DNA of 63,983 bases, counting the filler, from Asterionella formosa (lineage: Eukaryota): the NCBI GenBank assembly GCA_002256025.1. It is 7 parts of 7 records of this genome, joined end to end, with 100 filler letters (N's around TTAATTAATTAA, not from the genome) between each part and the next. Parts side by side here need not be neighbours in the genome. Positions count along the whole stretch, not along the records: positions 55,364 to 63,983 come from NKIB01011934.1; 6 more parts are not named here. The stretch is one strand, 5' to 3'. Positions 9,140 to 63,983 of this stretch are shown here, piece by piece. The notes beneath the pieces were generated by a model. It saw nothing but the letters and a program-made list of their open reading frames with translations, was not told the DNA's origin and made no database searches. A program made the translations under genes and the position numbers. Numbering within the stretch: position 1 is the stretch's first letter; each line of letters begins with the position of its first letter.

Positions 9140-9239
9140 NNNNNNNNNNNNNNNNNNNNNNNNNNNNNNNNNNNNNNNNNNNNTTAATTAATTAANNNNN
9201 NNNNNNNNNNNNNNNNNNNNNNNNNNNNNNNNNNNNNNN
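9140..9239. other. Artificial scaffold spacer
   Basis: N44-TTAATTAATTAA-N44 (stops in all six frames). Confidence 0.98.
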
Positions 9240-13366: not shown

Positions 13367-14142
13367 NNNNNNNNNNNNNNNNNNNNNNNNNNNNNNNNNN
13401 NNNNNNNNNNNNNNNNNNNNNNNNNNNNNNNNNNNNNNNNNNNNNNNNNNNNNNNNNNNNNNNNNNNNNNNNNNNNNNNNNNNNNNNNNNNNNNNNNNNN
13501 NNNNNNNNNNNNNNNNNNNNNNNNNNNNNNNNNNNNNNNNNNNNNNNNNNNNNNNNNNNNNNNNNNNNNNNNNNNNNNNNNNNNNNNNNNNNNNNNNNNN
13601 NNNNNNNNNNNNNNNNNNNNNNNNNNNNNNNNNNNNNNNNNNNNNNNNNNNNNNNNNNNNNNNNNNNNNNNNNNNNNNNNNNNNNNNNNNNNNNNNNNNN
13701 NNNNNNNNNNNNNNNNNNNNNNNNNNNNNNNNNNNNNNNNNNNNNNNNNNNNNNNNNNNNNNNNNNNNNNNNNNNNNNNNNNNNNNNNNNNNNNNNNNNN
13801 NNNNNNNNNNNNNNNNNNNNNNNNNNNNNNNNNNNNNNNNNNNNNNNNNNNNNNNNNNNNNNNNNNNNNNNNNNNNNNNNNNNNNNNNNNNNNNNNNNNN
13901 NNNNNNNNNNNNNNNNNNNNNNNNNNNNNNNNNNNNNNNNNNNNNNNNNNNNNNNNNNNNNNNNNNNNNNNNNNNNNNNNNNNNNNNNNNNNNNNNNNNN
14001 NNNNNNNNNNNNNNNNNNNNNNNNNNNNNNNNNNNNNNNNNNNNNNNNNNNNNNNNNNNNNNNNNNNNNNNNNNNNNNNNNNNNNNNNNNNNNNNNNNNN
14101 NNNNNNNNNNNNNNNNNNNNNNNNNNNNNNNNNNNNNNNNNN

Positions 14143-18374: not shown

Positions 18375-18474
18375 NNNNNNNNNNNNNNNNNNNNNNNNNN
18401 NNNNNNNNNNNNNNNNNNTTAATTAATTAANNNNNNNNNNNNNNNNNNNNNNNNNNNNNNNNNNNNNNNNNNNN
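18375..18474. other. Artificial scaffold spacer
   Basis: N44-TTAATTAATTAA-N44. Confidence 0.98.
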
Positions 18475-27603: not shown

Positions 27604-27703
27604 NNNNNNNNNNNNNNNNNNNNNNNNNNNNNNNNNNNNNNNNNNNNTTAATTAATTAANNNNNNNNNNNNNNNNNNNNNNNNNNNNNNNNNNNNNNNNN
27701 NNN
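27604..27703. other. Artificial scaffold spacer
   Basis: N44-TTAATTAATTAA-N44. Confidence 0.98.
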
Positions 27704-36829: not shown

Positions 36830-36929
36830 NNNNNNNNNNNNNNNNNNNNNNNNNNNNNNNNNNNNNNNNNNNNTTAATTAATTAANNNNNNNNNNNNNNN
36901 NNNNNNNNNNNNNNNNNNNNNNNNNNNNN
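36830..36929. other. Artificial scaffold spacer
   Basis: N44-TTAATTAATTAA-N44. Confidence 0.98.
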
Positions 36930-43874: not shown

Positions 43875-44165
43875 TACCATTTACCAGTTACTATCCTGTT
43901 GTACCAAATGGATGAATAAAACTGGCATTAATTATTTCCATTCTAAATTTGGGCACGTCTGCGATTATTGAAAAGCTTTGAGGTACTATAAGATTTATTT
44001 TCAATTTCATGATAGTGACATTTTGTATCTGTTTTCCTGCAAATATTTGAGTGGTTGGCTGTTCATGTAAAACAGCATTTGGTGATATGTACATACACGC
44101 TATCAATATTTATGCATGTTGAATTGGTTTCGATTAATTTTTTTAGATGCTAAATAGCAATTTAA

Positions 44166-46047: not shown

Positions 46048-46147
46048 NNNNNNNNNNNNNNNNNNNNNNNNNNNNNNNNNNNNNNNNNNNNTTAATTAAT
46101 TAANNNNNNNNNNNNNNNNNNNNNNNNNNNNNNNNNNNNNNNNNNNN
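46048..46147. other. Artificial scaffold spacer
   Basis: N44-TTAATTAATTAA-N44. Confidence 0.98.
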
Positions 46148-48097: not shown

Positions 48098-51000
48098 CTA
48101 AACCCCAACATTCTTCACCACCACGTCCATGACAGCAACTTCCTTACAGATCTTCTCTAAGTCACTGAAAGGAAAATAACGGTGCTTTTCTCGCAAATCC
48201 ACATTGTGCTCCGGCTGGCCACTGGCACTAGGCTGACCGGGTATTTGTGAAAGGAGAAGTTTCAGATCGGTTGAGCGATTGCTGTACATAGTCTCACCAG
48301 CAAATAGCTGAAGCTCTGTTAATACTGCAGGTTTCAACAGTATCGAGTCACTCTGATCCAGTCGACCACCAGACCCTTTCAGGACCATCAAAGGACCATT
48401 GATTCCTTTAATTGCACTCCCATTAAGTTCGCGATCAATTGAAAGTGTCGCTAGTGATAAGTGAAGCACCTGAGAAAATGGCTTAGCAGATCCTTCAGCT
48501 CTAATGATTCCCTTGGGTCTTGAGCAAAAATCAATAAGGATATCAGCTTCGCGTTCGGAAACAAGTAGGACTTGCCCATTTTGATAGCACACACATGTGT
48601 CTGCCACTCGCAAATAATCAGTGAGTGTCAACACTGATGCTCCTGAAGGGCTTAGCACAGCAGAGAAAAAGTTTCTGGTCCCAAATATACAACTGGACCA
48701 GTTGATTTGATTGATGGTTGTAGGCTGCAGATGGTACTTGATGAAATCTGCCAAATGAATCACTCCAGCATCATCCGGAAGCTGTGAAGGGAGCGTGAAC
48801 AGCGATGCTCTAACATACCAGTCTACTTCACTACGAGGCTGCATTTCAGTTGTTTCCTTTTGTAGTTCCTCTTCACGCTCTCTCTCTAGCTCTCGTTCTC
48901 GCTCACATTCCTCTTCCATACCACCAGATACTCTGACCATTTTTTTCAAGCATCTGGGCTCTCTATTGAAGCTTGGCAATCATAGAATGAGATTCTTTTG
49001 ATTGTCCAATTCCCCTCCCCCCCCCTGTGCGTTCAATGTGATAATTGCTTGCAACTTCGATTGCTACCTTTGCTTCTATATGCTCGTTCAGCTTGGCATA
49101 CATCTCTTCAAGAGAAAGCTTTTCGTCCTCAATACATTTTGTTGGTTTGTGCTTTGTAGTACAATAGAATAGACCCTGATTGGCCCAATCCACAAATCCA
49201 CTCTCATTTGCTGAAACGGTGTTAGCTATAGTCCATGTCAGGACTTCCTTGGCATTAAAAGAATGAGATTTGCAATTCATTCTCATCTCAGCGAAGACAT
49301 CTTGTTGACCAATGATAACAAGTTTCTGCGATCTTCCAATCTTCCTCATCCTGCCAGCTGCTTGCATGAGTTTGTCTTTGCACAAACCAGGTCCGATGGT
49401 TAATAATGCGACTGCAGTAGGTGACAACTTCAAATCTGATCCACGGCATCTTGGCTCATCGAAAATGGCAAAGCATTCATGTTCAGGGATGGATGACAAT
49501 GAAAGTGGTAGGATCTTTCGAAATCGATCCATAATCTTCCACTGTGCAGTATTACCACCTCGAGCCTCTGGGAAGACAACTCCCTGAAACGGAAAGTTCT
49601 TAAGTTGAATAAATTTTGATGCAATATCACAGTTATCATTCCCTGCAAGCAAGGCGCCGGCATCAATGAGCACATGGTACTCCATAATATTCTCAGATAC
49701 CAGAGACAAGATTGCGTAAATGGCTGGTCGTNNNNNNNNNNNNNNNNNNNNNNNNNNNNNNNNNNNNNNNNNNNNNNNNNNNNNNNNNNNNNNNNNNNNN
49801 NNNNNNNNNNNNNNNNNNNNNNNNNNNNNNNNNNNNNNNNNNNNNNNNNNNNNNNNNNNNNNNNNNNNNNNNNNNNNNNNNNNNNNNNNNNNNNNNNNNN
49901 NNNNNNNNNNNNNNNNNNNNNNNNNNNNNNNNNNNNNNNNNNNNNNNNNNNNNNNNNNNNNNNNNNNNNNNNNNNNNNNNNNNNNNNNNNNNNNNNNNNN
50001 NNNNNNNNNNNNNNNNNNNNNNNNNNNNNNNNNNNNNNNNNNNNNNNNNNNNNNNNNNNNNNNNNNNNNNNNNNNNNNNNNNNNNNNNNNNNNNNNNNNN
50101 NNNNNNNNNNNNNNNNNNNNNNNNNNNNNNNNNNNNNNNNNNNNNNNNNNNNNNNNNNNNNNNNNNNNNNNNNNNNNNNNNNNNNNNNNNNNNNNNNNNN
50201 NNNNNNNNNNNNNNNNNNNNNNNNNNNNNNNNNNNNNNNNNNNNNNNNNNNNNNNNNNNNNNNNNNNNNNNTCCTCCTGTAAATCTCGAATCTGTTGGCG
50301 CAGTTGATGAGCTGCCTGTTTCTTTTCAACACTGCTTTCCAATGTGATTCGACGCGTAGGTTGGTATTCAGTTACTCAGCATTGAAAATATCTTGGAGAT
50401 ATACTCTCGAGTACTTCTCTGTTATGAGAAATGTTGCAGCCTGGTTGCTCAAACAAAAGAGTCTGTGGCTAGCCACATGGTTTCTGTCCAAGAAAGATGC
50501 GACTTTTTTTGCCACTTCCCAAGAAAATTTGTCAGATAAAACCATGTGCTGAAGGTCTATGTAAGACAAAGCAGCACCTACACCCGAAAGGACGGAGTTG
50601 AACTTAATTTTGGCGGTCTGGAAGATCAGACAGTATGCAATCCATCTCTCGACTTCGTAATTCAGTTGTCATCATGTCATGCCCACTTTCCACAGGTGCG
50701 CGCCACTTATGGAGCAGGCGTCTGTATTCATCAACTATGCTTTCCAATTTAGTTATTTCATCATCAGAAAATGTGGTGAAAACATTTGTTTCCAGGTCAT
50801 TCATGGCTTTCTTGAATAAGAATTGTTCAATTCCCTTCATTGACGTCCAATTTTTTGGTTCGGTTGGATTCTGTATCAACTCTTTGACCCACATCATAAC
50901 TTCATTGTAGGTAGCCACTGTAAGCTCAGGTGGATCTGGAATAAAACCAATGTTGACCATATTTCTTTCTGAGATGAAATCATCAGAGTCGTCTGATGAT

Positions 51001-52263: not shown

Positions 52264-53111
52264 NNNNNNNNNNNNNNNNNNNNNNNNNNNNNNNNNNNNN
52301 NNNNNNNNNNNNNNNNNNNNNNNNNNNNNNNNNNNNNNNNNNNNNNNNNNNNNNNNNNNNNNNNNNNNNNNNNNNNNNNNNNNNNNNNNNNNNNNNNNNN
52401 NNNNNNNNNNNNNNNNNNNNNNNNNNNNNNNNNNNNNNNNNNNNNNNNNNNNNNNNNNNNNNNNNNNNNNNNNNNNNNNNNNNNNNNNNNNNNNNNNNNN
52501 NNNNNNNNNNNNNNNNNNNNNNNNNNNNNNNNNNNNNNNNNNNNNNNNNNNNNNNNNNNNNNNNNNNNNNNNNNNNNNNNNNNNNNNNNNNNNNNNNNNN
52601 NNNNNNNNNNNNNNNNNNNNNNNNNNNNNNNNNNNNNNNNNNNNNNNNNNNNNNNNNNNNNNNNNNNNNNNNNNNNNNNNNNNNNNNNNNNNNNNNNNNN
52701 NNNNNNNNNNNNNNNNNNNNNNNNNNNNNNNNNNNNNNNNNNNNNNNNNNNNNNNNNNNNNNNNNNNNNNNNNNNNNNNNNNNNNNNNNNNNNNNNNNNN
52801 NNNNNNNNNNNNNNNNNNNNNNNNNNNNNNNNNNNNNNNNNNNNNNNNNNNNNNNNNNNNNNNNNNNNNNNNNNNNNNNNNNNNNNNNNNNNNNNNNNNN
52901 NNNNNNNNNNNNNNNNNNNNNNNNNNNNNNNNNNNNNNNNNNNNNNNNNNNNNNNNNNNNNNNNNNNNNNNNNNNNNNNNNNNNNNNNNNNNNNNNNNNN
53001 NNNNNNNNNNNNNNNNNNNNNNNNNNNNNNNNNNNNNNNNNNNNNNNNNNNNNNNNNNNNNNNNNNNNNNNNNNNNNNNNNNNNNNNNNNNNNNNNNNNN
53101 NNNNNNNNNNN

Positions 53112-54232
53112 AAAAGATTTGACCCCCATTACTGTCATTACTGGCTTTCTCGGTGCCGGAAAGACCACCTTTGTCAATTACATCTTAAAAGAACAAAACC
53201 AATGGAAGATTTGTGTCTTGGAGAATGAATTTGGTGAAGTTTCCATCGACGACGGTCTAGGTACGTGGCACTTGCGTAGCGCTTGGTAATAATAGTCGGG
53301 GCACTCTGCTCACAAAACGAACCTCTTGTTGTTGACCTCTTGTGTATTTGAATTCTGCAGTTGCTGAATCGATGGATGCCCCCGAGGACCTTATCACCAT
53401 GGACAATGGCTGTGTGTGCTGTAGTATTCGAGGAGATTTGGTTCGTACCTTGGGCCAACTCGCCAAACGTCGCAAGGACTTTGATGCCATTCTGCTCGAA
53501 ACAACAGGCCTGGCGGATCCTGCTCCCATTGTGTATACCATCCAGACGAACCCAAAGATGAGTGATAATTATCGGATCGACTCAATTGTCTGCTTGGCTG
53601 ACTGTAAGCATTTGAATATTCATTTGGATGACAAGAAACCAGAAGGTTCCATTAATGAAGCCCTTCAGCAAGTGGCATTTGCCGATAAAATTCTCTTGAA
53701 TAAGATTGACTTGGTCACTCTAGAAGAGAAGGAAGCCTTGAAAGCGCGGTTGAAGACCATTAATCGATTTGCAACTGTCATTGAAACGGAAAAGTCACGT
53801 GCGCCGCTGGGGGAAATCTTGGGCCTCAACTCCTTCAACATGGAATCTATTCTTGACTACGACCCTTCATTCTTTGACAATCAGGAGGACACGGTTCATA
53901 ATCTGGAATTGGTGCAGTCGGTTGGTATTGAATTCAAGGGAAACCTCCACGCGCAATGGTTCAACATGTTTATGATGGATTTGCTTCGAGAACGCGCAGC
54001 AGACTTGTACCGTACCAAAGGTCTCCTTAGTTTTCATGGACAGGGAGATACCAAGTTTGTATTTCAGGGTGTTCACGAACAAATTAACTTCGGTCCGGCC
54101 AAGATGGGATGGAAGGAAGGAGAAGATCGAGTCAACAAGTTTGTCTTCATTGGTAAAAACCTGAACCGACAAGAATTGACAAAGAGTTTGATGGAATGCC
54201 TCTATAAAGACGAAGGAGAGGGAAAGAAATAA
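53112..54232 (+). CDS. cobW: CobW/COG0523 (ZNG1-like) metallochaperone GTPase, 5' partial, intron 53261-53360
   Basis: [28 protein letters not shown] and a CobW C-terminal domain (YRTKG, FQGVH, FVFIG). The GTACGT...CTGCAG intron restores the frame. Confidence 0.93.
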
Positions 54233-54432: not shown

Positions 54433-55225
54433 TTATTTTGTTCCCTTTACAGCAAACATGGGATCACCAGAATTCGTTTTCGCCACACTGGCTGCTGTAT
54501 TCATCCAAGCCAAGCCCGAGGATGGATTTGAAAACATTTCTTGGAGTGAAGGTCGTTTGGGTGTTTCGACTCGCACAATCAAGTCCAGTGCTTCCACCGA
54601 CGCCCAGTTGGCTGTATAGTGATAGTAACTCGCAACGATGGTCATGCGGCCAATATCATCGGCCAGCATCCACATGGCTACAGCCTTGGTAGGGAAACAT
54701 CGGTTGGAAAAACTCACAAGAGCGACTCCACCAGGTCGCAATATGCGATGCATTTCTTGAAATATTTCTTTAGGTTTGGTCAAGTAATCAACACTAACCA
54801 CATTGCAAACCATGTCAAACGAATTGTCTTGAAATCTTGACAAGTATGGATCCTTGTTCAAGTCCTGGACGTAATATTCTGTCAATTGTTTATTTGCTTG
54901 CAGTTCTTCTTCGTTCATACCAATTCCTACGACTCGTCCCAAGGGAATAGTATCTGGGAAATGTGAAATCCAGGAACTACAAAGGTCTAAAACGTCGGCT
55001 GGGGCTGATAGTTGTCTATCCTTTTGTTGTGCCAACAGTTCCGTCTTGTAAAATTCCGTGAGAGCCGCAATGGCAGCATCGTCAATATGAGTGACAAATC
55101 GTGGTCTATCGTAAAAGTTTGAATCATCCGTTTCGTCTAGACGCTTCAAATCCTTGGCGGTGTAGGGCCAGTCTGAGCCGCTTCCATCAAAATCAGTTTC
55201 ATCAAATGTACAAATGGAGCGGGCT
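54433..55225 (-). CDS. Class I SAM-dependent methyltransferase (type 11), 5' partial
   Basis: WPYTAKDLKRLDETDDSNFYDRPRFVTHIDD, VLDLCSSWISH, VVSVDYLTKP, SFSNRCFPTKA; likely splice acceptor TTCTTCCAG near 55225. Confidence 0.88.
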
Positions 55226-55263
55226 GGAAGAAATGAAAAAGCAATGTGGCGCTGCTGCTGCTG

Positions 55264-55363
55264 NNNNNNNNNNNNNNNNNNNNNNNNNNNNNNNNNNNNN
55301 NNNNNNNTTAATTAATTAANNNNNNNNNNNNNNNNNNNNNNNNNNNNNNNNNNNNNNNNNNNN
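55264..55363. other. Artificial scaffold spacer
   Basis: N44-TTAATTAATTAA-N44. Confidence 0.98.
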
Positions 55364-55639
55364 ATGTCCAAATCAACAGTGGTAGAGTTGTCATCGCCTT
55401 GTGAATATCTCCGTTTCTTGTTCAAATTACTGCCAGGTATTTCCATCAAGTTCAAAATCTGCTTCGGTATTTTTAAGTGATTGTATATGTTAATCATTTT
55501 TATAGCGCGTTCTTACTAGTCCATTTCTAGGTTTGTCAGTGGAATGGTTGGTGGGTAGTGACTTCCTTGTGCAGAAGTAGGGTAAAAAATTTTTGGTAGC
55601 ATTTTGCTTGAATCATTTCCTTTGAGTGCACTGTTCATG

Positions 55640-58395
55640 TCAGCCAGAGAATTGGATGGCAAGTGTTGATTGGCTGGGCGAAAGATTTTCTTTGTATCCC
55701 CACTCCTTGTTGCTGTCTCTCTTTGGTTTTCTTTATTGTTGATTGATAGTAGGAGCTTACTGATATTTGAACTTTCTCCATGCCTGCCTTTGAAGCCTCA
55801 AATAAATATTTGGCTCTTTCCAAAAACCTGATTTTTTTCCCAATTTTGATTTCAGCAGATCCTCCGGAGTGGTGCTAAAAAATGCTCATCTCTTCGTAAG
55901 ATTTCTCCTTCATGTTGATAATATTTCTTCATCTTTTCATTGTATTCAGATTGTGATGTTAGTTTGTTCTGTCCATTATGTAGCGCCTAGTTCCTTTCAT
56001 GCCATGCTGCTTCCGTGACTTTCCAAAGTTGTGAGATCTCTTGCAAATTGTGAGTAGTGGACTTGGGTCTTGTGCTGAGCTTTGTACCACTTTTCTTCAT
56101 CCTTTGCTCCTGTACCCTCTTAGTGTCAATTTATTTCCCAGAGCGTCTTGTTGGGCAATGGCCTCACGCATGTGGCATTTTGTTGTGAGTGGTGTACCTG
56201 GGGCAAATTTTTGTACGAAACTGTACTGATGTTGCGACATTACATGTTGTAGGTATGCCATCCATACTGAGGATACCCTATCTCCAGTTTTGGACTGTTG
56301 TACTAGGTTTCTAGACATCTGTGAGATTTGGATGTCTCTGTGGTACTTACTACTCTTTGGATGCCTGCAGATGTGCATGTGTTCATTTGCTTCCCGCTCC
56401 CCACAGGGCAAATATGTTTCTATACCCTAGTGCATGATTTGTCTTCTTACCCAGGTTGAGAGCCACCCATGGACATATTTTGTGATCATTGTTTTCGTTG
56501 GACCCGATCGCCCTTTGTATACTGTGGATGGGTTTTCCCAGTCCACTATTTGTTCCCTGTTTTCGTTGTATGTTCCTATAAATAAGCCCTTTATGTTCCA
56601 GATTATATATACTGTCTCATCTGAGCTGCTGTACCTGTGGTGTGGATTCTGGACGTTGCGATGATTGGACTTGCTTGCATCGTCGGTTAATGTGGAGAAT
56701 TTTGCCTTGGTCCCCCGGGCGCTTCATTTGGGCACCTCGCAAGGAAATTTGAGGCCATTGCCTCCGCCACAATGTCCAGTATTGCCGAGGTTGTCAGTTT
56801 ACCATTTACCTCTCTCTTGTTTTGATGTGATTTAATCAGTTTTACCTTCACTAGTGTATGAATGAATTCTGCCAGAAGTGCTGAAACTATGTCTTCATTA
56901 GCCGGGGGACATCCTGTGTGTTTGCTCCATGTTAAAAACCTAACCTGAGCGAAGGCTGCAGCACTGTCTGTCCAAATAGTTACCAATGACGATGTGTCTA
57001 TCTCATGGAACTTGATGAATTCCAGTAGAAACTTCAATGCTGATGCTATTCCAAATAACTCAGCTCGCTCTCGTTGAGCTATTCTGGTTGATATCTCCAT
57101 CTCTACCAGCCCGGAGCAGGCGGCTGTTTGCCTTGGAATCGAACTTCTAGTACTTGTTGTGTGCAGATTCCACGCAAATGAACACCTTGAGTCGGATTCC
57201 ATTAATCTGTCTGTCGCGATGTGAGTTTTGAGACCCAAATGAAATATCTACATAGTCTGCTTCTGGCAGATGCGGTCACGACCATGTTCTTGACTAGATG
57301 AGTCTCCTAGGTTGGTAGTCCTTGCAGTTGTCGCATGAAAGGGGCGCTAAGATCTGGTCTGAGGCTGTCCTCCTTTAATATCCATCATTCTATATGCTAT
57401 ACCTCCTTGGTCATTCACATCACATGGTATGCTGCCCTTTGACTGCGACATTTTTGGTTCTCTGCATGTTTGTTTATTGAATTGAATTGTTCTAGGATCT
57501 GTGGTGGCATTAGCATATGCTTTCCATATTCCCTGTTATTTCTGATATTCCCAGAGAAGTTGCTCGTTCAGTTGGATGTGTGTGAGTCATTCTTGTTTGG
57601 GGTATTTTATCCATTGTCCTAACTGCTGACGCAGAATCACTTTTTAATCTGTTTGTAAGTAAGTTACGTTTTATTGCCATTGTCCATTCTTTTTGTTGCA
57701 GTTTGGTTGGCTTGGCCATTGCCATTTGGTGATCCTTCCTGGTATTCTTGTGCAATCCAAAATTTCTTGCCGCAGTATTCTCCCACCTGCTATTGCAATG
57801 TGTGCCACTATAGTCACTTGTAGATACATTCTGCATGCATTTAATGAAACATTCTGGAATGACAAACCCTTTCTTGCAAAGAGTTGTTGCATAATCATCG
57901 AGTCATCCTGATATTGCTTTTCTGGGCCCCAATGGTTGCTGATCTCAACCATGAATTAATGGGCTCCTAAAAACTTTCTCATATGCATTAGCCATGTTGA
58001 TGTTAAGTACGGAATTACCTCCGCAGTGTTCATCAGTAAGCAAGGGTTCTTTCCATCCCGACTCTAGTTGGCTGGTTCTTAATGCGATGTCCATCATTTC
58101 TGCCACTTCATCCTCTGATGCGTACTTGTGAAATAGGTAATTTTCTGTCGCTCTGATCCCTTGCTCTACACTTAAATCCAACAATTTCAGTACCCCTGAT
58201 AAAATTGGTCTATAGACCACTGCTAGCGGAAATTTTTATTGAAGCCCATTTTCCCCAGACTTGCAATTCTTGCCCTCTTTTGTGCGGCTTCAATTTGTGC
58301 AGATGTCATACTTGTGACTGGTAAGGAGTACGTCATTTGTGCCGCCTATATCCCCCAGTCTGCCTGACTTGTGTCCCTTCTCCACATCTTGTTTG
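55640..58395 (-). mobile_element. 5'-truncated non-LTR retrotransposon with RNase H and C-terminal zinc knuckle, degenerate
   Basis: MGFNKNF-PLAVVYRP...DLSVEQG, LNACRMYLQV, WQWPSQP, RNase H (IATD, RAELFG, WTDS, IKSHQ), and C-GEREANEHMHIC. Confidence 0.85.
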
Positions 58396-58800: not shown

Positions 58801-58955
58801 AAATATGATACAAAAATGGCGTTTTTTTTGTGTATCACCAACGGTTCTTTTGGTCTGATCACCGGTGCATCGTGGGTACATCACTGATTTAGTTTTTGGA
58901 CCCCTGACCAATGCTGTATCGATGATACAGCCGTTGATCGCTTTGTATCACATCC
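58801..58955 (-). ncRNA. Candidate ~155-nt structured RNA
   Basis: 15-bp terminal stem and 8-bp inner stem that pair fully (with G-U) only on the minus strand; shares an 18/19-nt upstream motif with the tRNA-like gene at 59207. Confidence 0.35.
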
Positions 58956-59145
58956 GTTGTTGCTGATGAAATAAAATGTGAATTAAATTTTATAGTACAT
59001 TAAAGCTATCCAATAATTGCACTTGTGCCCACCAAATAGATGGACACAATTACTACTGGTTTTATTCGTCCGTACGGTACAACCGGACCTGTCTTTTCAT
59101 CAGCCGCATCACCCGGAACCCTAGGGACTACATGAAAAAGACAGG

Positions 59146-59207
59146 TGGAGAATGCAGGAATCGAACCCGCCATCACAGTGGGTGTGCTTACCACTAAGCC
59201 ATTCCCC
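59146..59207 (-). ncRNA. 62-nt tRNA-Ala-like RNA lacking a normal anticodon arm
   Basis: Acceptor GGGGAAT/ATTCTCC-A with G3-U70, D stem GCTT/AAGC, T arm GCGGG-TTCGATT-CCTGC, A and B boxes, and T5 six nt downstream. Confidence 0.75.
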
Positions 59208-59467
59208 GTTGTTGCTGATAAAATAACTGCAAATACGCAAGCACAACACTACCTTTCAGCTTTGTCAGTCAAACAAGAATCAATAGTCCGCTCATCTCTA
59301 TCATACCTCCTGTCTTCCAACATCGACTATATCTCTATTAATTGGCGCAATGAGCTATAAAAATGGTGGATATAGCTGAAACTTCAGATGCTGCCAATAT
59401 TCCCATTTCGAAAAAGAATCAATGCTGTGCAGCTGATGAGGACCTCAAAGAAATTGTTGAGTTGTCT

Positions 59468-59625
59468 ACTGCTGGTCCAGCTGACATTGACAAGATGGTT
59501 CTTGTTGAAAAGAGGAAACCCCCAACTGCTGGCTGGTACACTTGACATTGAGGCGATGGGTGCACCTGAAAAGAAAATACCTCCAACTGCTGGTATACTT
59601 GACATTGACAAGATGAGTCTTGTCT
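59468..59625 (+). repeat. About 57-61-bp tandem repeat (3 copies), coding-like
   Basis: TAGPADIDKMVLVEKRKPP / TAG-TLDIEAMGAPEKKIPP / TAGILDIDKMSLV, with a frameshift. Confidence 0.65.
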
Positions 59626-60422
59626 ACATTAAATTTATTTCATGTAATTCTTTCCTTTTACTCTCTATATTGACAGGAGGTTGTTGCAAGCCCAAGGTTA
59701 GCAATCTGGTACAAATCACATCTCGCATCACAGAGCTTCCAGGCAATATATACAATGGTTCCACAGTCAGTAAGTAGCCCCAACCAAGGAGTGCCGCTTG
59801 TCTGTGTTACCGGTACTGGTACAGTAAGTACATACTGAAGGTAAGACACAACCGAGGGTGGAGAGGACTGCCTGCAAGTATTCTTGTGTTCGAGGTTTGG
59901 GAGGCGCAAGTATGCAGACCAAACAAACAAGGTCAACCTGCGAGGGCCTCCAAAGTCGAGTACACAAGATTACGAGTAGGCAGACTCCTCTCAAGTAGGG
60001 TCTTAACTAGGCAATTCATAACCTGGCTATTGGCGCGCTTTTCGCCACTACATTGCCCTTTCTGTTAACATTGAAAACCTATTTTAGAATGTTTGTATAT
60101 TGGATGCAAACTAGCCAATTGTCCTTCATGTAAAACATATATTGGATATTTCATAAGTACAGTTTTTGGATGACTCAATCCTGCAATTGACCATCAAATA
60201 AAACATATTTTGTAGATTTCACATGCTCCGTTTTTGGACTACCAAACTACCTTCCATAGTTTCAATACTAGCCCATAGATTTTATTGCCGAAATCGACTG
60301 CTGTTTATTTAAGTGAAATGGATTACTGACATCAATTCCCCCCCTATGGACTGCCGTTTACTTGAGGAAAATCGACTGCCGAAATTGGAAGGGAGTAGGA
60401 TGAGCTACGTGAAGGCACAAAA

Positions 60423-60510
60423 TGATGGTTTTCTGTATCGATGGCAATTCCACTATTTACATCCCTGATGGTTTTCTGTATCGATGGCAATTCCACTATT
60501 TACATCCCTG
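60423..60510. repeat. Perfect 43-bp tandem duplication
   Basis: TGATGGTTTTCTGTATCGATGGCAATTCCACTATTTACATCCC occurs twice. Confidence 0.95.
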
Positions 60511-61065
60511 CTATCTTCCAGCATGCTCCGAGGTATACTAACTCCGTTCATTGATGTCGCTCTCAAACATCGACTCTTCATCCTCAAATGGATCTGGCTT
60601 GTTGCTGGATAATTCGACTCCTTATAGAATTCATATTGTTGCATCCTGCTTGCTTCATCACAGCGGTGGCGCCAAAATTTCGGTTCTCCTTTCTATTGAT
60701 TTCCGATAGCCTTTCCGGTCAACTCCTTCGCTAGATTTGATATGTAGTGATAAATAAATTAATGGTTGCTGTTCAAAAGCGACCTCAATGAGTCGTTGGG
60801 TATAAAACTCAAAACGTTATGGTAGGTCAAAGTTAGGCTTCCATCTTGTCATTGAACCGGTATTTTCGACAGATATGATCAGCCATTAAATTTTAACTAT
60901 ATTTTTGTAGTATGTTTTCTATGTGACCTACACTATCTCAAATCAGATCTTGGCAGCAAGTTTTAGTGCTCTTGTGTTGGCTTTTTTCCGCTGCTCTACA
61001 ATAGTATTGTTTCATTGCTTTCTAATCACAATATTGCTTTTGTTACTTTTATATAATCATCTATA

Positions 61066-61859
61066 ATGACAACGAAAAGTCGTCAATCTCAATGAGCTAT
61101 CGTGAACTCAGCAAAGCAGCTGGAACATGATGGAGCTGGTGTTCTGCATGAAATCGTATTCAACAAGGAAGAGAGGACAGGTAAGTGCTTTTTGATTGTT
61201 GTTGCTATGTTTGAGTTCCCGCCATGGTCGAGCATGCTAATTATAATACATATTTCTTTCTCTTCACAGTGTTGATGAAGGCACCTGTCATGTTTCTCCT
61301 CCACTCCCTGACAATGCCAACAAGTCACCGTCCACTTGTCAAACAATTGTCCAATGAGGTGAAGTATATTTCCAGTTGATTGTTATTGTTTTTCACAAGG
61401 TATAATATAAACACACTGACATTATTTGTTTCTTTTTCTTGTTTCCCCATGCTAGCAAAGCCACTTAATTCGAAACTCGCATGAAAATCGTAAGTTCTTC
61501 AGGATGCCAACAATGTTGGCAACATATCTTGCCAGCACCAACAACATATCACTCCATTAATCCCTGTCATCCTACTCAAACTTGTCCTCCTAAAGTTACA
61601 AAGCCACAAACTCCCACATCAGCCAGTAAATTTTTCGATGCATCCTGCTCCTCCACCTGCCAGATACTACCAGCAGCCTGCACCCCCAGCACCAAACCTC
61701 CGCTATCAACAAGCTGTTGCTCCTCCGCCACCTCCACCACTACAACTTGAAATCAATCCAGAAACCACACACTCCAAATCGATTCATGCATCGGTTTCTG
61801 CTCCTTCAGGCCCGATCAGAAAATTTCTGGAATTTCGTTGTGACAACAAAAAAGTGTGA
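61066..61859 (+). pseudogene. Spliced gene remnant of unknown function
   Basis: Intron-like segments GTAAGT...TTCACAG (61181-61269) and GTGAAG...ATGCTAG (61359-61455) join in frame; Pro/Gln-rich tail; internal stops. Confidence 0.35.
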
Positions 61860-62009
61860 GTTGACAATTGTTAATGAAAATATGTTGACAATTTTCAACA
61901 CTATTTTTCCGCTGACTCATTTCTTTTTTCACTTTTTATTCTACTCGGTTTTCTTAGAGAATTTTATTTTTGCATGTTTGATACTGTGTGCCTGGTGCAA
62001 ATCTTAGTA

Positions 62010-62895
62010 GGATGAATCTTTCCATGGTCTGGTCTATCCACACTGATGTTACTTTTTCCTGTTGTGGTTGCTTTGGTGAACTTTCCTTGACATTGTGGAC
62101 CTAGCTATGTGTATCTCTTATAAACATGATTTTTTGGATGCTGACATGCCATGATGTGTTTATTGTTTTCTCTTGCTCCGCTTGTCTATTCCCTGATGCA
62201 TTGTTAGCAGTCTTCGTGCTCCTGTTGAAAACCAGCCAACCATGGATTTTTTTAGTAAGCAAGCATTGTTGTGGTGGTTCTTCGCTCCTCTCCCCTTTAT
62301 TCAGCTAAGCGTTTTTCCCAGTCGTCTACTTTCTTCTTGTTTTTGTCATATTTCTGCTCAGATCACTGCTTGTACTCTCTAAGCTTTATATTCTGCTGCA
62401 TGTGTTCAGCAGTGGCTGTGTGTAGTATGTGACACTGATCAACAAGTAAGCTGCCCTGCCTGCATCATTGGATAATGAGGGGACATATTATTTCTTTTTG
62501 CTGCAGCCTGCCTGGCACCGCATCATGATGGCGTCAGCCACTACGTTCAGTTGCACTGATGAGCTTAATTGCACTTGCTTGAGCTTTTGAGTCCACCTGA
62601 TTTTCACTGTGACTGGTAGGCTAGTATTGATAACTTCTTCTGTGAGAGACATAATATCAGCATTTTCTGGAAGGTGATGACATGTGTGATTGCTCCATGA
62701 TAGAAAGTTTATTCTCACCACCAGTGCTGCAGCACTATCTGTCCATATGTTTACAACCGAATGTTTAGCTATTAGCTATCTCGTGGAAATAGATAAATTC
62801 CATTAGGAACTTCAGTGCTGAGGCTAAGCCAAATAATTTCACTCTGCCTTGTTGAACTATTTCGCCTGTGGCCCAGAACATGCTGCAGTTTATGT
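62010..62895 (-). mobile_element. Second remnant of the same non-LTR family (RNase H C-half and zinc knuckle)
   Basis: TAACSG, VNIWTDSAAA, LPENADIMSL, QLNVVAD and EQENNKHIMACQHPK align with the 56270-57130 region. Confidence 0.75.
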
Positions 62896-62957
62896 TGGAG
62901 CGTGCAAGAATCAAACCCGCCACCTCATGAGGTGTGCTAGCCACTAAGCCATTCCCC
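62896..62957 (-). ncRNA. Second, more degenerate copy of the 62-nt tRNA-like element
   Basis: 51/62 nt identical to 59146-59207 without gaps; flanks unrelated. Confidence 0.65.
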
Positions 62958-63983
62958 TTTCAGCACTCCAGGAGAGTGGACAGTGGGATTCGCTCAGTGG
63001 AGGAGGCAACCATGATATGGATGGGTTGGTTTAGGCAGTCCAAGCTGACTAAAAATTGCTTGAGCCAACAATGAAATTGAATTGCTCATTTGTATAGACA
63101 GTGTTATTGCTTCTGGTAGATTTGAAGTTCAGAAAATAGCAGGAGACTTTGATTTTGCTTGCTTGCCAAACCGAAATTTTCTGAAGACACAACAATCAAA
63201 GGTTGGTTCATGCGTGAAATTGGTTGGTGCTCTTAGATATCCTGGTCTAGAAATGCATCTCATTGTTTTTTGATGGACATCTTTTGATTACTCTTTGTTT
63301 GAAAGTACTTTACAAAGACAAAAATACAATTTTTTGTGATATTCATTTACAAATTTATTAAGAAAATTTGTTGTAACACTTATTTTCTTGTAGCAATTTC
63401 GACAATGAATGATAGTCTATTAGATTGCTGATTCCTCCTGTCTAGTAGAGAGTCTGGTCCATTAGTCGATGTTATCATTGGGGAAGGGGGAAGGGATGAG
63501 GGAATGGGATTTTAGAGGACCACCTATTCTGATTTTCATCACTGATTAACAACAATTTCGGAAATGAGATGGACACCACTGGAAGGTGGCATGATTTTCT
63601 CTTTTGTTGGAGTTGTTTATTTAGTGGTTGATTTAACAATAAACTATAGGAGAACATGCATCTTATAATGTATTCTTCTTAATTTGTTATTTATTGATCA
63701 AGCCAAATTCATGCCACCTTATTTCTGATAAAAGAAATTGAATCAACATAAAGACAAGATGGGCGGCATGAAGTAGAAAAGCTAATGAAATGAATGCTAG
63801 GAATAAAAAAACTAAACCCAACTAGATTTAGAATGTTTAAAAATTGGTTTGAAACAAGTGTACACTTTGTTTGCTTGGTTCCTAGGATTTTAAAGTCAGG
63901 AAGTTCCTTCCAAACACCTTTTCCCAATGGTCCACAGAAAACTGTGATTAAAAACTTGTAAACAACATTGTGTGCTCGTGGTG

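Follow-up and report, generated by a model that had tools for sequence, protein, structure and literature searches.

Heads of a probable high-copy tRNA-derived SINE in the diatom Asterionella formosa, one of them joined to a LINE fragment in a candidate RNA-level chimera

Results

Organization of the locus

The window, that is, the whole stretch of DNA that was analysed, is 63,983 nucleotides long. Two 62-nt tRNA-like sequences had been pointed out in an earlier note on this DNA, and both were confirmed on the minus strand (copy 1 and copy 2). The position of copy 1 upstream of a LINE fragment, in the same orientation and 750 nt away from it, was found as that note had described. The coordinates of all features are given in Table 1.

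Table 1. Features of the SINE copies, the LINE fragments and their junction in the window
Feature	Position	Strand	Remarks
SINE head, copy 1	59146-59207	-	A box 59191-59201, B box 59157-59167; model R1 91.7 bits
SINE copy 1, complete, ~233 bp	58975-59207	-	head and family-wide tail; contig loose ends at 59207 and 58973/58981
T5 run	59135-59139	-	7 nt past copy 1 head
Direct repeat, upstream copy, 21 nt	59206-59226	-	last 2 nt are the first two G of the head
Direct repeat, downstream copy	58954-58974	-	20/21 identical
SINE head, copy 2	62896-62957	-	62 nt, tRNA-like; model R1 85.8 bits
Junction overlap TCCA	62896-62899	-	fits both the 3' end of the head and the LINE (TTCCAAGG in fragment A)
LINE fragment B	61976-62898	-	5'-truncated inside the putative RNase H domain; frameshifts and a stop codon
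LINE fragment A	55520-58395 (both ends approximate)	-	5'-truncated; no RT domain
Third SINE copy, partial or decayed	43894-43997	+	tail positions 121-224; 76% identity over 105 nt

Contigs from three DNA runs and one RNA run were aligned to positions 58900-63100 at 80% likeness. The block between the two heads (59246-62001) was found to be highly repeated in all three DNA runs, with many internal joints; in run X1 its summed depth, a quantity not equivalent to copy number, was 76k-604k. The block includes a 61-bp tandem array (59468-59623) and an exact 43-bp duplication (60423-60510), and Pfam searches of its eight ORFs gave no matches.

Pairs of 44-N runs, the two members of a pair lying 12 bases apart, return at intervals of ~9.2 kb in the window (9140-9239, 18375-18474, 27604-27703, 36830-36929, 46048-46147 and 55264-55363), and larger N runs occupy 13367-14142, 49732-50271 and 52264-53111; these look like masking or scaffolding. 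Two long open frames lying beside LINE fragment A have the look of host genes: by eye we take the first (53336-54232, plus strand) to be GTPase-like, of the CobW/ZNG1 type, and the second (54433-55311, minus strand) is presumably methyltransferase-like.

The tRNA-like sequences

Copies 1 and 2 are 81.5% identical over 65 nt, and when they were aligned together with their flanks the likeness was confined to the 62 nt and ceased at both ends. The 3' end of copy 2 reads CTCCA. Its exact 62-mer occurs once in the window, where no occurrence is expected by chance.

A compact cloverleaf could be drawn by hand. Its acceptor stem has 7 bp and includes G3:U70, its D stem has 3 bp and its T stem 5 bp; the anticodon arm is replaced by a stem of 4 bp with a loop of 6 nt, and a variable loop is missing. 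Pairing was found in 94.7% of the 57 cells (three sequences), compared with 44-54% in slid controls. No covariation was detected among the three sequences, and the predicted folding energies of the heads were no better than those of shuffled sequences (z -1.03 and -0.30).

The heads were also compared with the A-box and B-box consensuses of Pol III promoters. Positions 7-17 and 41-51 of copy 1 agree with these consensuses throughout. Copy 2 has kept its A box intact; its B box carries two changes and its acceptor stem two mismatches. ARAGORN identified no tRNA across the window, and no Rfam match to the tRNA-like copies was obtained at gathering thresholds; a relaxed, E-value-based Rfam search returned a weak match to tmRNA for copy 1 only (18.7 bits, E 1e-4, against a gathering score of 47). 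A search of the window with model R1, built from the three heads, recovered the two heads and no further one.

A pattern scan for the head gave no matches in viral contigs and none in contigs of bacterial and archaeal genomes. The only match came from metagenome contigs, in a marine contig (L001) whose head is identical to copy 1 at 58 of 62 positions and is followed by a 13-nt trailer and then by sequence that resembles neither the SINE tail nor the LINE. Positions 1-1229 of this contig correspond to a fragment of a phage tail tape-measure gene (PHROG, E 7e-27), the head side occupying 1230-1493. The contig, which has low coverage, may be a chimeric assembly or may hold an unexplained copy of the head outside diatoms; it was given little weight because its other half is the phage gene fragment and the assembly is possibly chimeric.

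A high-copy repeat family headed by the tRNA-like sequence

In copy 1 the head is followed 7 nt on by a T5 run, and then by a tail of ~160 nt. We take this T5 run to be terminator-like for Pol III. Of 63 family ORFs (see below), 52 retain the peptide CLFH, which spans this run in copy 1.

The borders of the element were set independently by loose ends of contigs: in run X1, 40 contigs have such an end at 59207, where the head starts, and 45 and 50 contigs have one at 58973 and 58981, at the beginning of the downstream direct repeat. The flanks beyond these borders are AT-rich and carry discordant letters (agreement 0.40-0.48). A target-site duplication, a feature that the earlier note had recommended looking for, was found at copy 1 as a 21-nt direct repeat, 20/21 identical, enclosing 59207 to 58975; the duplication measures 19-21 nt and lies at the borders marked by the contigs.

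Summed depth in run X1, which is not to be read as copy number, was 571k-807k over 58900-59181, 59k in the bin containing the copy 2 head and 2.3k-4.8k over LINE B (62002-62847), the depth of single exact contigs being ~400-1000. At 59172, inside the anticodon-like region, 106 X1 contigs break with a common alternative sequence, and therefore head subfamilies appear to exist that differ there. One X1 contig joins the front of a copy-2-like head to a copy-1-like tail.

A search with the 80-aa frame running through copy 1 yielded 63 public ORF clusters (from 64 candidates at E <= 10; weakest E 2.2e-5), all of which showed the head followed by the same tail. The start of the head is included in 23 of them, and 13 extend at least 8 residues upstream of it, giving 12 different flanks. 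The most variable spot among the family ORFs is the anticodon-like loop. These clusters (P0076-P0138) are an annotation artefact: in ENA, JGI and NCBI data, read-through frames of the SINE have been filed as "hypothetical protein" clusters, at least 63 in number.

Several features of a SINE were found together: internal boxes, a short and non-autonomous build, dispersed copies with unrelated flanks and a target-site duplication, the last being testable at copy 1 alone. We are confident that both tRNA-like copies are heads of a high-copy tRNA-derived SINE of ~233 bp. This replaces the proposal of the earlier note that they are Pol III genes for a processed RNA, since the family is an established one, with a tail and a target-site duplication. 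The observation in that note that likeness stops at the predicted mature ends holds between copies 1 and 2; across the family it does not, copy 1 continuing ~170 nt into the family-wide tail.

Compared with the 3' regions of LINE fragments A and B, the SINE tail scored no higher than shuffled sequences did, and nothing above chance was found between it and the C-termini of 43 LINE proteins. The tail therefore offers no support for this LINE family as the partner of the SINE. The RNA run consists of metatranscriptome contigs, one of which spans most of the copy 1 element at low likeness; it is uninformative on a Pol III transcript or on a 62-nt RNA.

LINE fragments A and B

The earlier note had placed the LINE family of the junction elsewhere in the window as well, and it is indeed present there as fragment A. 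Fragments A and B are collinear at the protein level, stop-to-stop frames of B from 62860 to ~61976 matching A from 57082 to 56182; taken from the junction, B corresponds to A from 57090 to 56182. Fragment B ends at the equivalent of position 56182 of A, ~650 bp before the end of A, where the high-copy repeat block starts. Fragment A can be aligned with the 2062-aa relative P0038 over residues ~1133-1805 of the latter, and it continues further towards the 3' end; with this extent it lacks the RT domain as well. The N run at 55264-55363 may conceal the true 3' end of the LINE.

With the 186-aa frame of fragment A as query, exhaustive searching by phmmer returned 32 matches at E <= 0.001. Fragments of at most 254 aa made up 29 of these, and two of the three longer matches were excluded as repetitive, low-complexity proteins. 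Through P0031 (511 aa), 43 longer relatives of up to ~2400 aa were reached, two of which carry the NCBI label Fragilaria crotonensis. Among 22 full-length relatives (~1900-2100 aa), RVT_1 was detected in 9, zf-RVT in 1 and Exo_endo_phos in 1; the best RVT_1 E-value was 3.4e-7, and the rows shown individually were below Pfam's cutoff. A distant relative, P0074, scored above the Exo_endo_phos cutoff.

Pfam RNase_H was found below threshold in 3 of the 14 relatives scanned, and the acidic motifs of the relatives stand, by our own reading of the sequences, in the order of RNase H. These observations hint weakly that the domain of fragments A and B is RNase H. Pfam gave no matches for the window ORFs of the two fragments, and a profile of the family matched nothing in PDB by sequence. 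The family is likely to be a divergent non-LTR element of the APE-RT-RNase H-zinc finger type, an assignment for which these predicted domains provide modest evidence.

In the RNase H region of fragment A, just upstream of the position equivalent to the joint between B and the head, a 10-nt string (57134-57143, minus strand) is identical to the core of the SINE B box. A decayed head within LINE A, considered on the strength of this identity and of a MAFFT alignment, was rejected: the stretch is conserved coding sequence in the relatives, and the string is therefore probably there by chance.

The junction of the copy 2 head with LINE fragment B

Past CTCCA, the SINE consensus continues into the trailer and the T5 run, whereas copy 2 continues into LINE sequence and has no SINE tail. 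Read from the CCA of the copy 2 head, the frame gives PT*TAACSGP, to be compared with PTQTAACAGP in family member P0014. The fusion of the head to the putative RNase H coding sequence, described in the earlier note, is thus real: both parts lie on the same strand and one runs directly into the other. The head is complete from G1, and the joint falls within the last 4 nt of its predicted tRNA-like 3' end.

A profile of the first part of the RNase H region, made from 55 family sequences, was used to search the six frames of 62700-63500. The profile detected fragment A (E 8e-11) and, near copy 2, only the part downstream of the head. No LINE sequence was detected upstream of the head in any frame of 62958-63500, and tblastn agreed; reading the flank upstream of copy 2 as an RNase H N-terminus was rejected on the same searches. 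RNase H sequence does not resume on the far side of the head, as it would, according to the earlier note, in a simple insertion. Since no LINE lies upstream of it, the head was not simply inserted into a LINE.

The same head/LINE junction, with a frameshift, is present in a public 56-aa ORF (P0139), which was the single candidate in a search with the junction ORF and the only sequence that the search returned. Mis-assembly of the junction is less likely in consequence. P0139 represents the same kind of locus and no second event.

No target-site duplication was found around the unit formed by the head and fragment B, the best local match of the upstream 40 nt being no better than those of shuffled sequences. 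With up to 3 mismatches allowed, the 17-mer adjoining the copy 2 head was found nowhere else in the window, and no SINE tail was found downstream of fragment B in the window (blastn at word size 7 and nhmmer). LINE sequence follows the head in 0 of 63 SINE ORFs, and the head peptide occurs in 0 of the 75 LINE-family proteins checked.

Discussion

Origin of the copy 2 junction

We infer, with even confidence, that copy 2 is an RNA-level chimera produced by template switching during LINE reverse transcription. An event at the RNA level is favoured because the break lies within 4 nt of the tRNA-like 3' end and the head is 5'-complete; the TCCA overlap, moreover, fits pairing of a nascent cDNA with the 3' end of an acceptor RNA. 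Template switching was among the proposals of the earlier note, and it stands as the best reading of copy 2, again at even strength. The copies themselves proved to be SINE heads, and several features of the locus count against a chimera: the LINE 3' end, required of a product of target-primed reverse transcription, is absent from fragment B; the head and B are enclosed by no target-site duplication; only one junction is known; the heads show neither covariation nor a predicted folding energy better than that of shuffles; the SINE tail does not resemble this LINE family; and domain support for the LINE class is weak.

The course of such an event would be as follows. The LINE reverse transcriptase would copy LINE RNA at a genomic nick and halt inside the RNase H region. 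A SINE transcript would end at the T5 run and be trimmed at the tRNA-like 3' end, without CCA, leaving a putative free head RNA. The end of the cDNA complementary to UCCA would pair with the 3' end of this RNA, and synthesis would continue to the first base of the head. The unit of head and fragment B would decay later, losing the LINE 3' part. Only tentatively do we propose this full chain, in which SINE transcripts ending at T5 are trimmed by tRNA 3'-processing to a free 62-nt RNA and the LINE reverse transcriptase jumps to it through the 4-nt overlap.

A juxtaposition at the DNA level is rather unlikely, although it is the strongest competitor of template switching. A LINE would have been inserted into a full SINE behind the head, or joined to it by deletion or recombination, and the SINE tail and the LINE 3' part would have been lost later. 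The locus is repeat-dense and rearranged, as the high summed depth and the many joints across 59246-62001 indicate, fragment B lacks its 3' part, no duplication flanks the head and B, and the TCCA overlap fits microhomology-mediated end joining equally. However, a chance break would be needed within ~5 of 233 positions, with both partners in the same orientation, and the lost SINE tail is not seen downstream of B in the window.

The TCCA overlap also bears on RNA ligation, which we consider improbable. In that case the head RNA and a cleaved LINE RNA would have been ligated before retrotransposition, as for U6/L1, into one template. The product would be the same as that of a template switch, and the mechanism has been shown for U6/L1 with RtcB (PMC6789731). 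Ligation, however, does not require an overlap such as TCCA. Its 5' partner must also carry a 2',3'-cyclic phosphate, an end that ordinary tRNA 3' trimming is not known to leave.

The earlier note had further suggested a nascent SINE, with the head and a LINE-derived tail amplifying as a new element. Many SINEs do consist of a small-RNA head and a LINE tail (PMC7245038, PMC5786205). Nevertheless, the LINE part here is low-copy: summed depth over fragment B is 120-350x below that of the real SINE. The junction is found in a single public protein, P0139, and fragment B consists of ~900 bp of coding sequence that has decayed and lacks a 3' end, all of which makes a nascent SINE very improbable.

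Targeting of Pol III genes by the LINE was also raised in that note. Such targeting, in the manner of TRE or Ty3 and with the tRNA-like sequences as working genes that attract the LINE, can hardly be entertained: both LINE fragments in the window do lie downstream of a head in the same orientation, but the distances are 0 and 750 nt (n=2) with no fixed spacing, the supposed targets are SINE copies, copy 1 being an insertion with its own duplication that may pre- or post-date fragment A and copy 2 being degenerate in acceptor stem and B box, and proximity of a head to a LINE is cheap because the heads belong to a high-copy family. As copy 1 forms an insertion complete in itself, the 750-nt spacing most likely reflects a chance neighbourhood within a cluster of transposons.

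Significance

The types of element described here are already known. SINEs have, however, barely been described in diatoms: 13 putative copies in Phaeodactylum tricornutum were reported as a first (PMC5859163). Our search for diatom SINE literature found this putative class and repeat tables in genome papers. A well-delimited, high-copy SINE with a compact head should help in annotating the repeats of diatom genomes and freshwater metagenomes, and its read-through ORFs, filed as hypothetical proteins in freshwater metagenomes, are worth masking.

Since it is a single case, and a decayed one, the joint between the copy 2 head and the LINE is a lead and not a result. If the RNA-level chimera is true, the LINE enzymes of diatoms would switch templates like those of mammals and fungi, and the head of the SINE would exist as a processed RNA. 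It would be the first LINE-made chimeric retro-element in diatoms; our literature search found nothing on LINE-made chimeras in this group and nothing relevant on the release of SINE heads by RNase Z or tRNA processing. The locus would then offer a snapshot of a SINE head coupling to a LINE, and it would prove indirectly the release of SINE heads in the form of small RNAs.

Comparison with known systems

TRE5 and TRE3 of Dictyostelium and Ty3 of yeast are retrotransposons that target tRNA genes. Here, as in those systems, a retroelement stands beside a sequence bearing a Pol III promoter; in contrast to them, no fixed distance is kept, and it is SINE copies that lie next to the retroelement here in place of tRNA genes.

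The tRNA-like domain of tmRNA resembles the heads in its acceptor stem with G3:U70 and in its T arm, the score being far below gathering. Tiny tRNA-like RNAs of the mascRNA type are, like the head, small cloverleaves of ~60 nt. A dedicated RNA gene is nonetheless unlikely, because the element is repeated, mobile and decaying, unlike tmRNA and mascRNA.

The family shares with tRNA-derived SINEs of the SINE2 type its A and B boxes, a length of ~233 bp, dispersed copies, a target-site duplication and the occurrence of 5'-truncated or decayed copies. It differs from them in its compact 62-nt cloverleaf, accepted by no tRNA finder, and in the conserved T5 run just past the head; neither a LINE-related nor an A-rich tail could be made out. 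From the "putative SINE" class of P. tricornutum, reported to have 13 copies (PMC5859163), it is set apart by its high copy number.

LINE-made chimeras are represented by U6/L1 in mammals and by MINE (WEIRD-MGL) and Mg-SINE in Magnaporthe grisea (PMC2104539, PMC4476161, PMC6789731). Copy 2 departs from them in being a single instance with neither a flanking duplication nor the LINE 3' end, and in that its 5' partner is the SINE head only and not the whole SINE RNA; our literature search found no described chimera with only a processed SINE head as 5' partner. The Magnaporthe junctions are reported to have no microhomology, unlike the junction of copy 2 with its 4-nt TCCA overlap (PMC2104539). 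In its architecture copy 2 is like these chimeras: a complete small or non-coding RNA lies 5', in sense orientation, with its 3' end joined to a LINE that is variably 5'-truncated.
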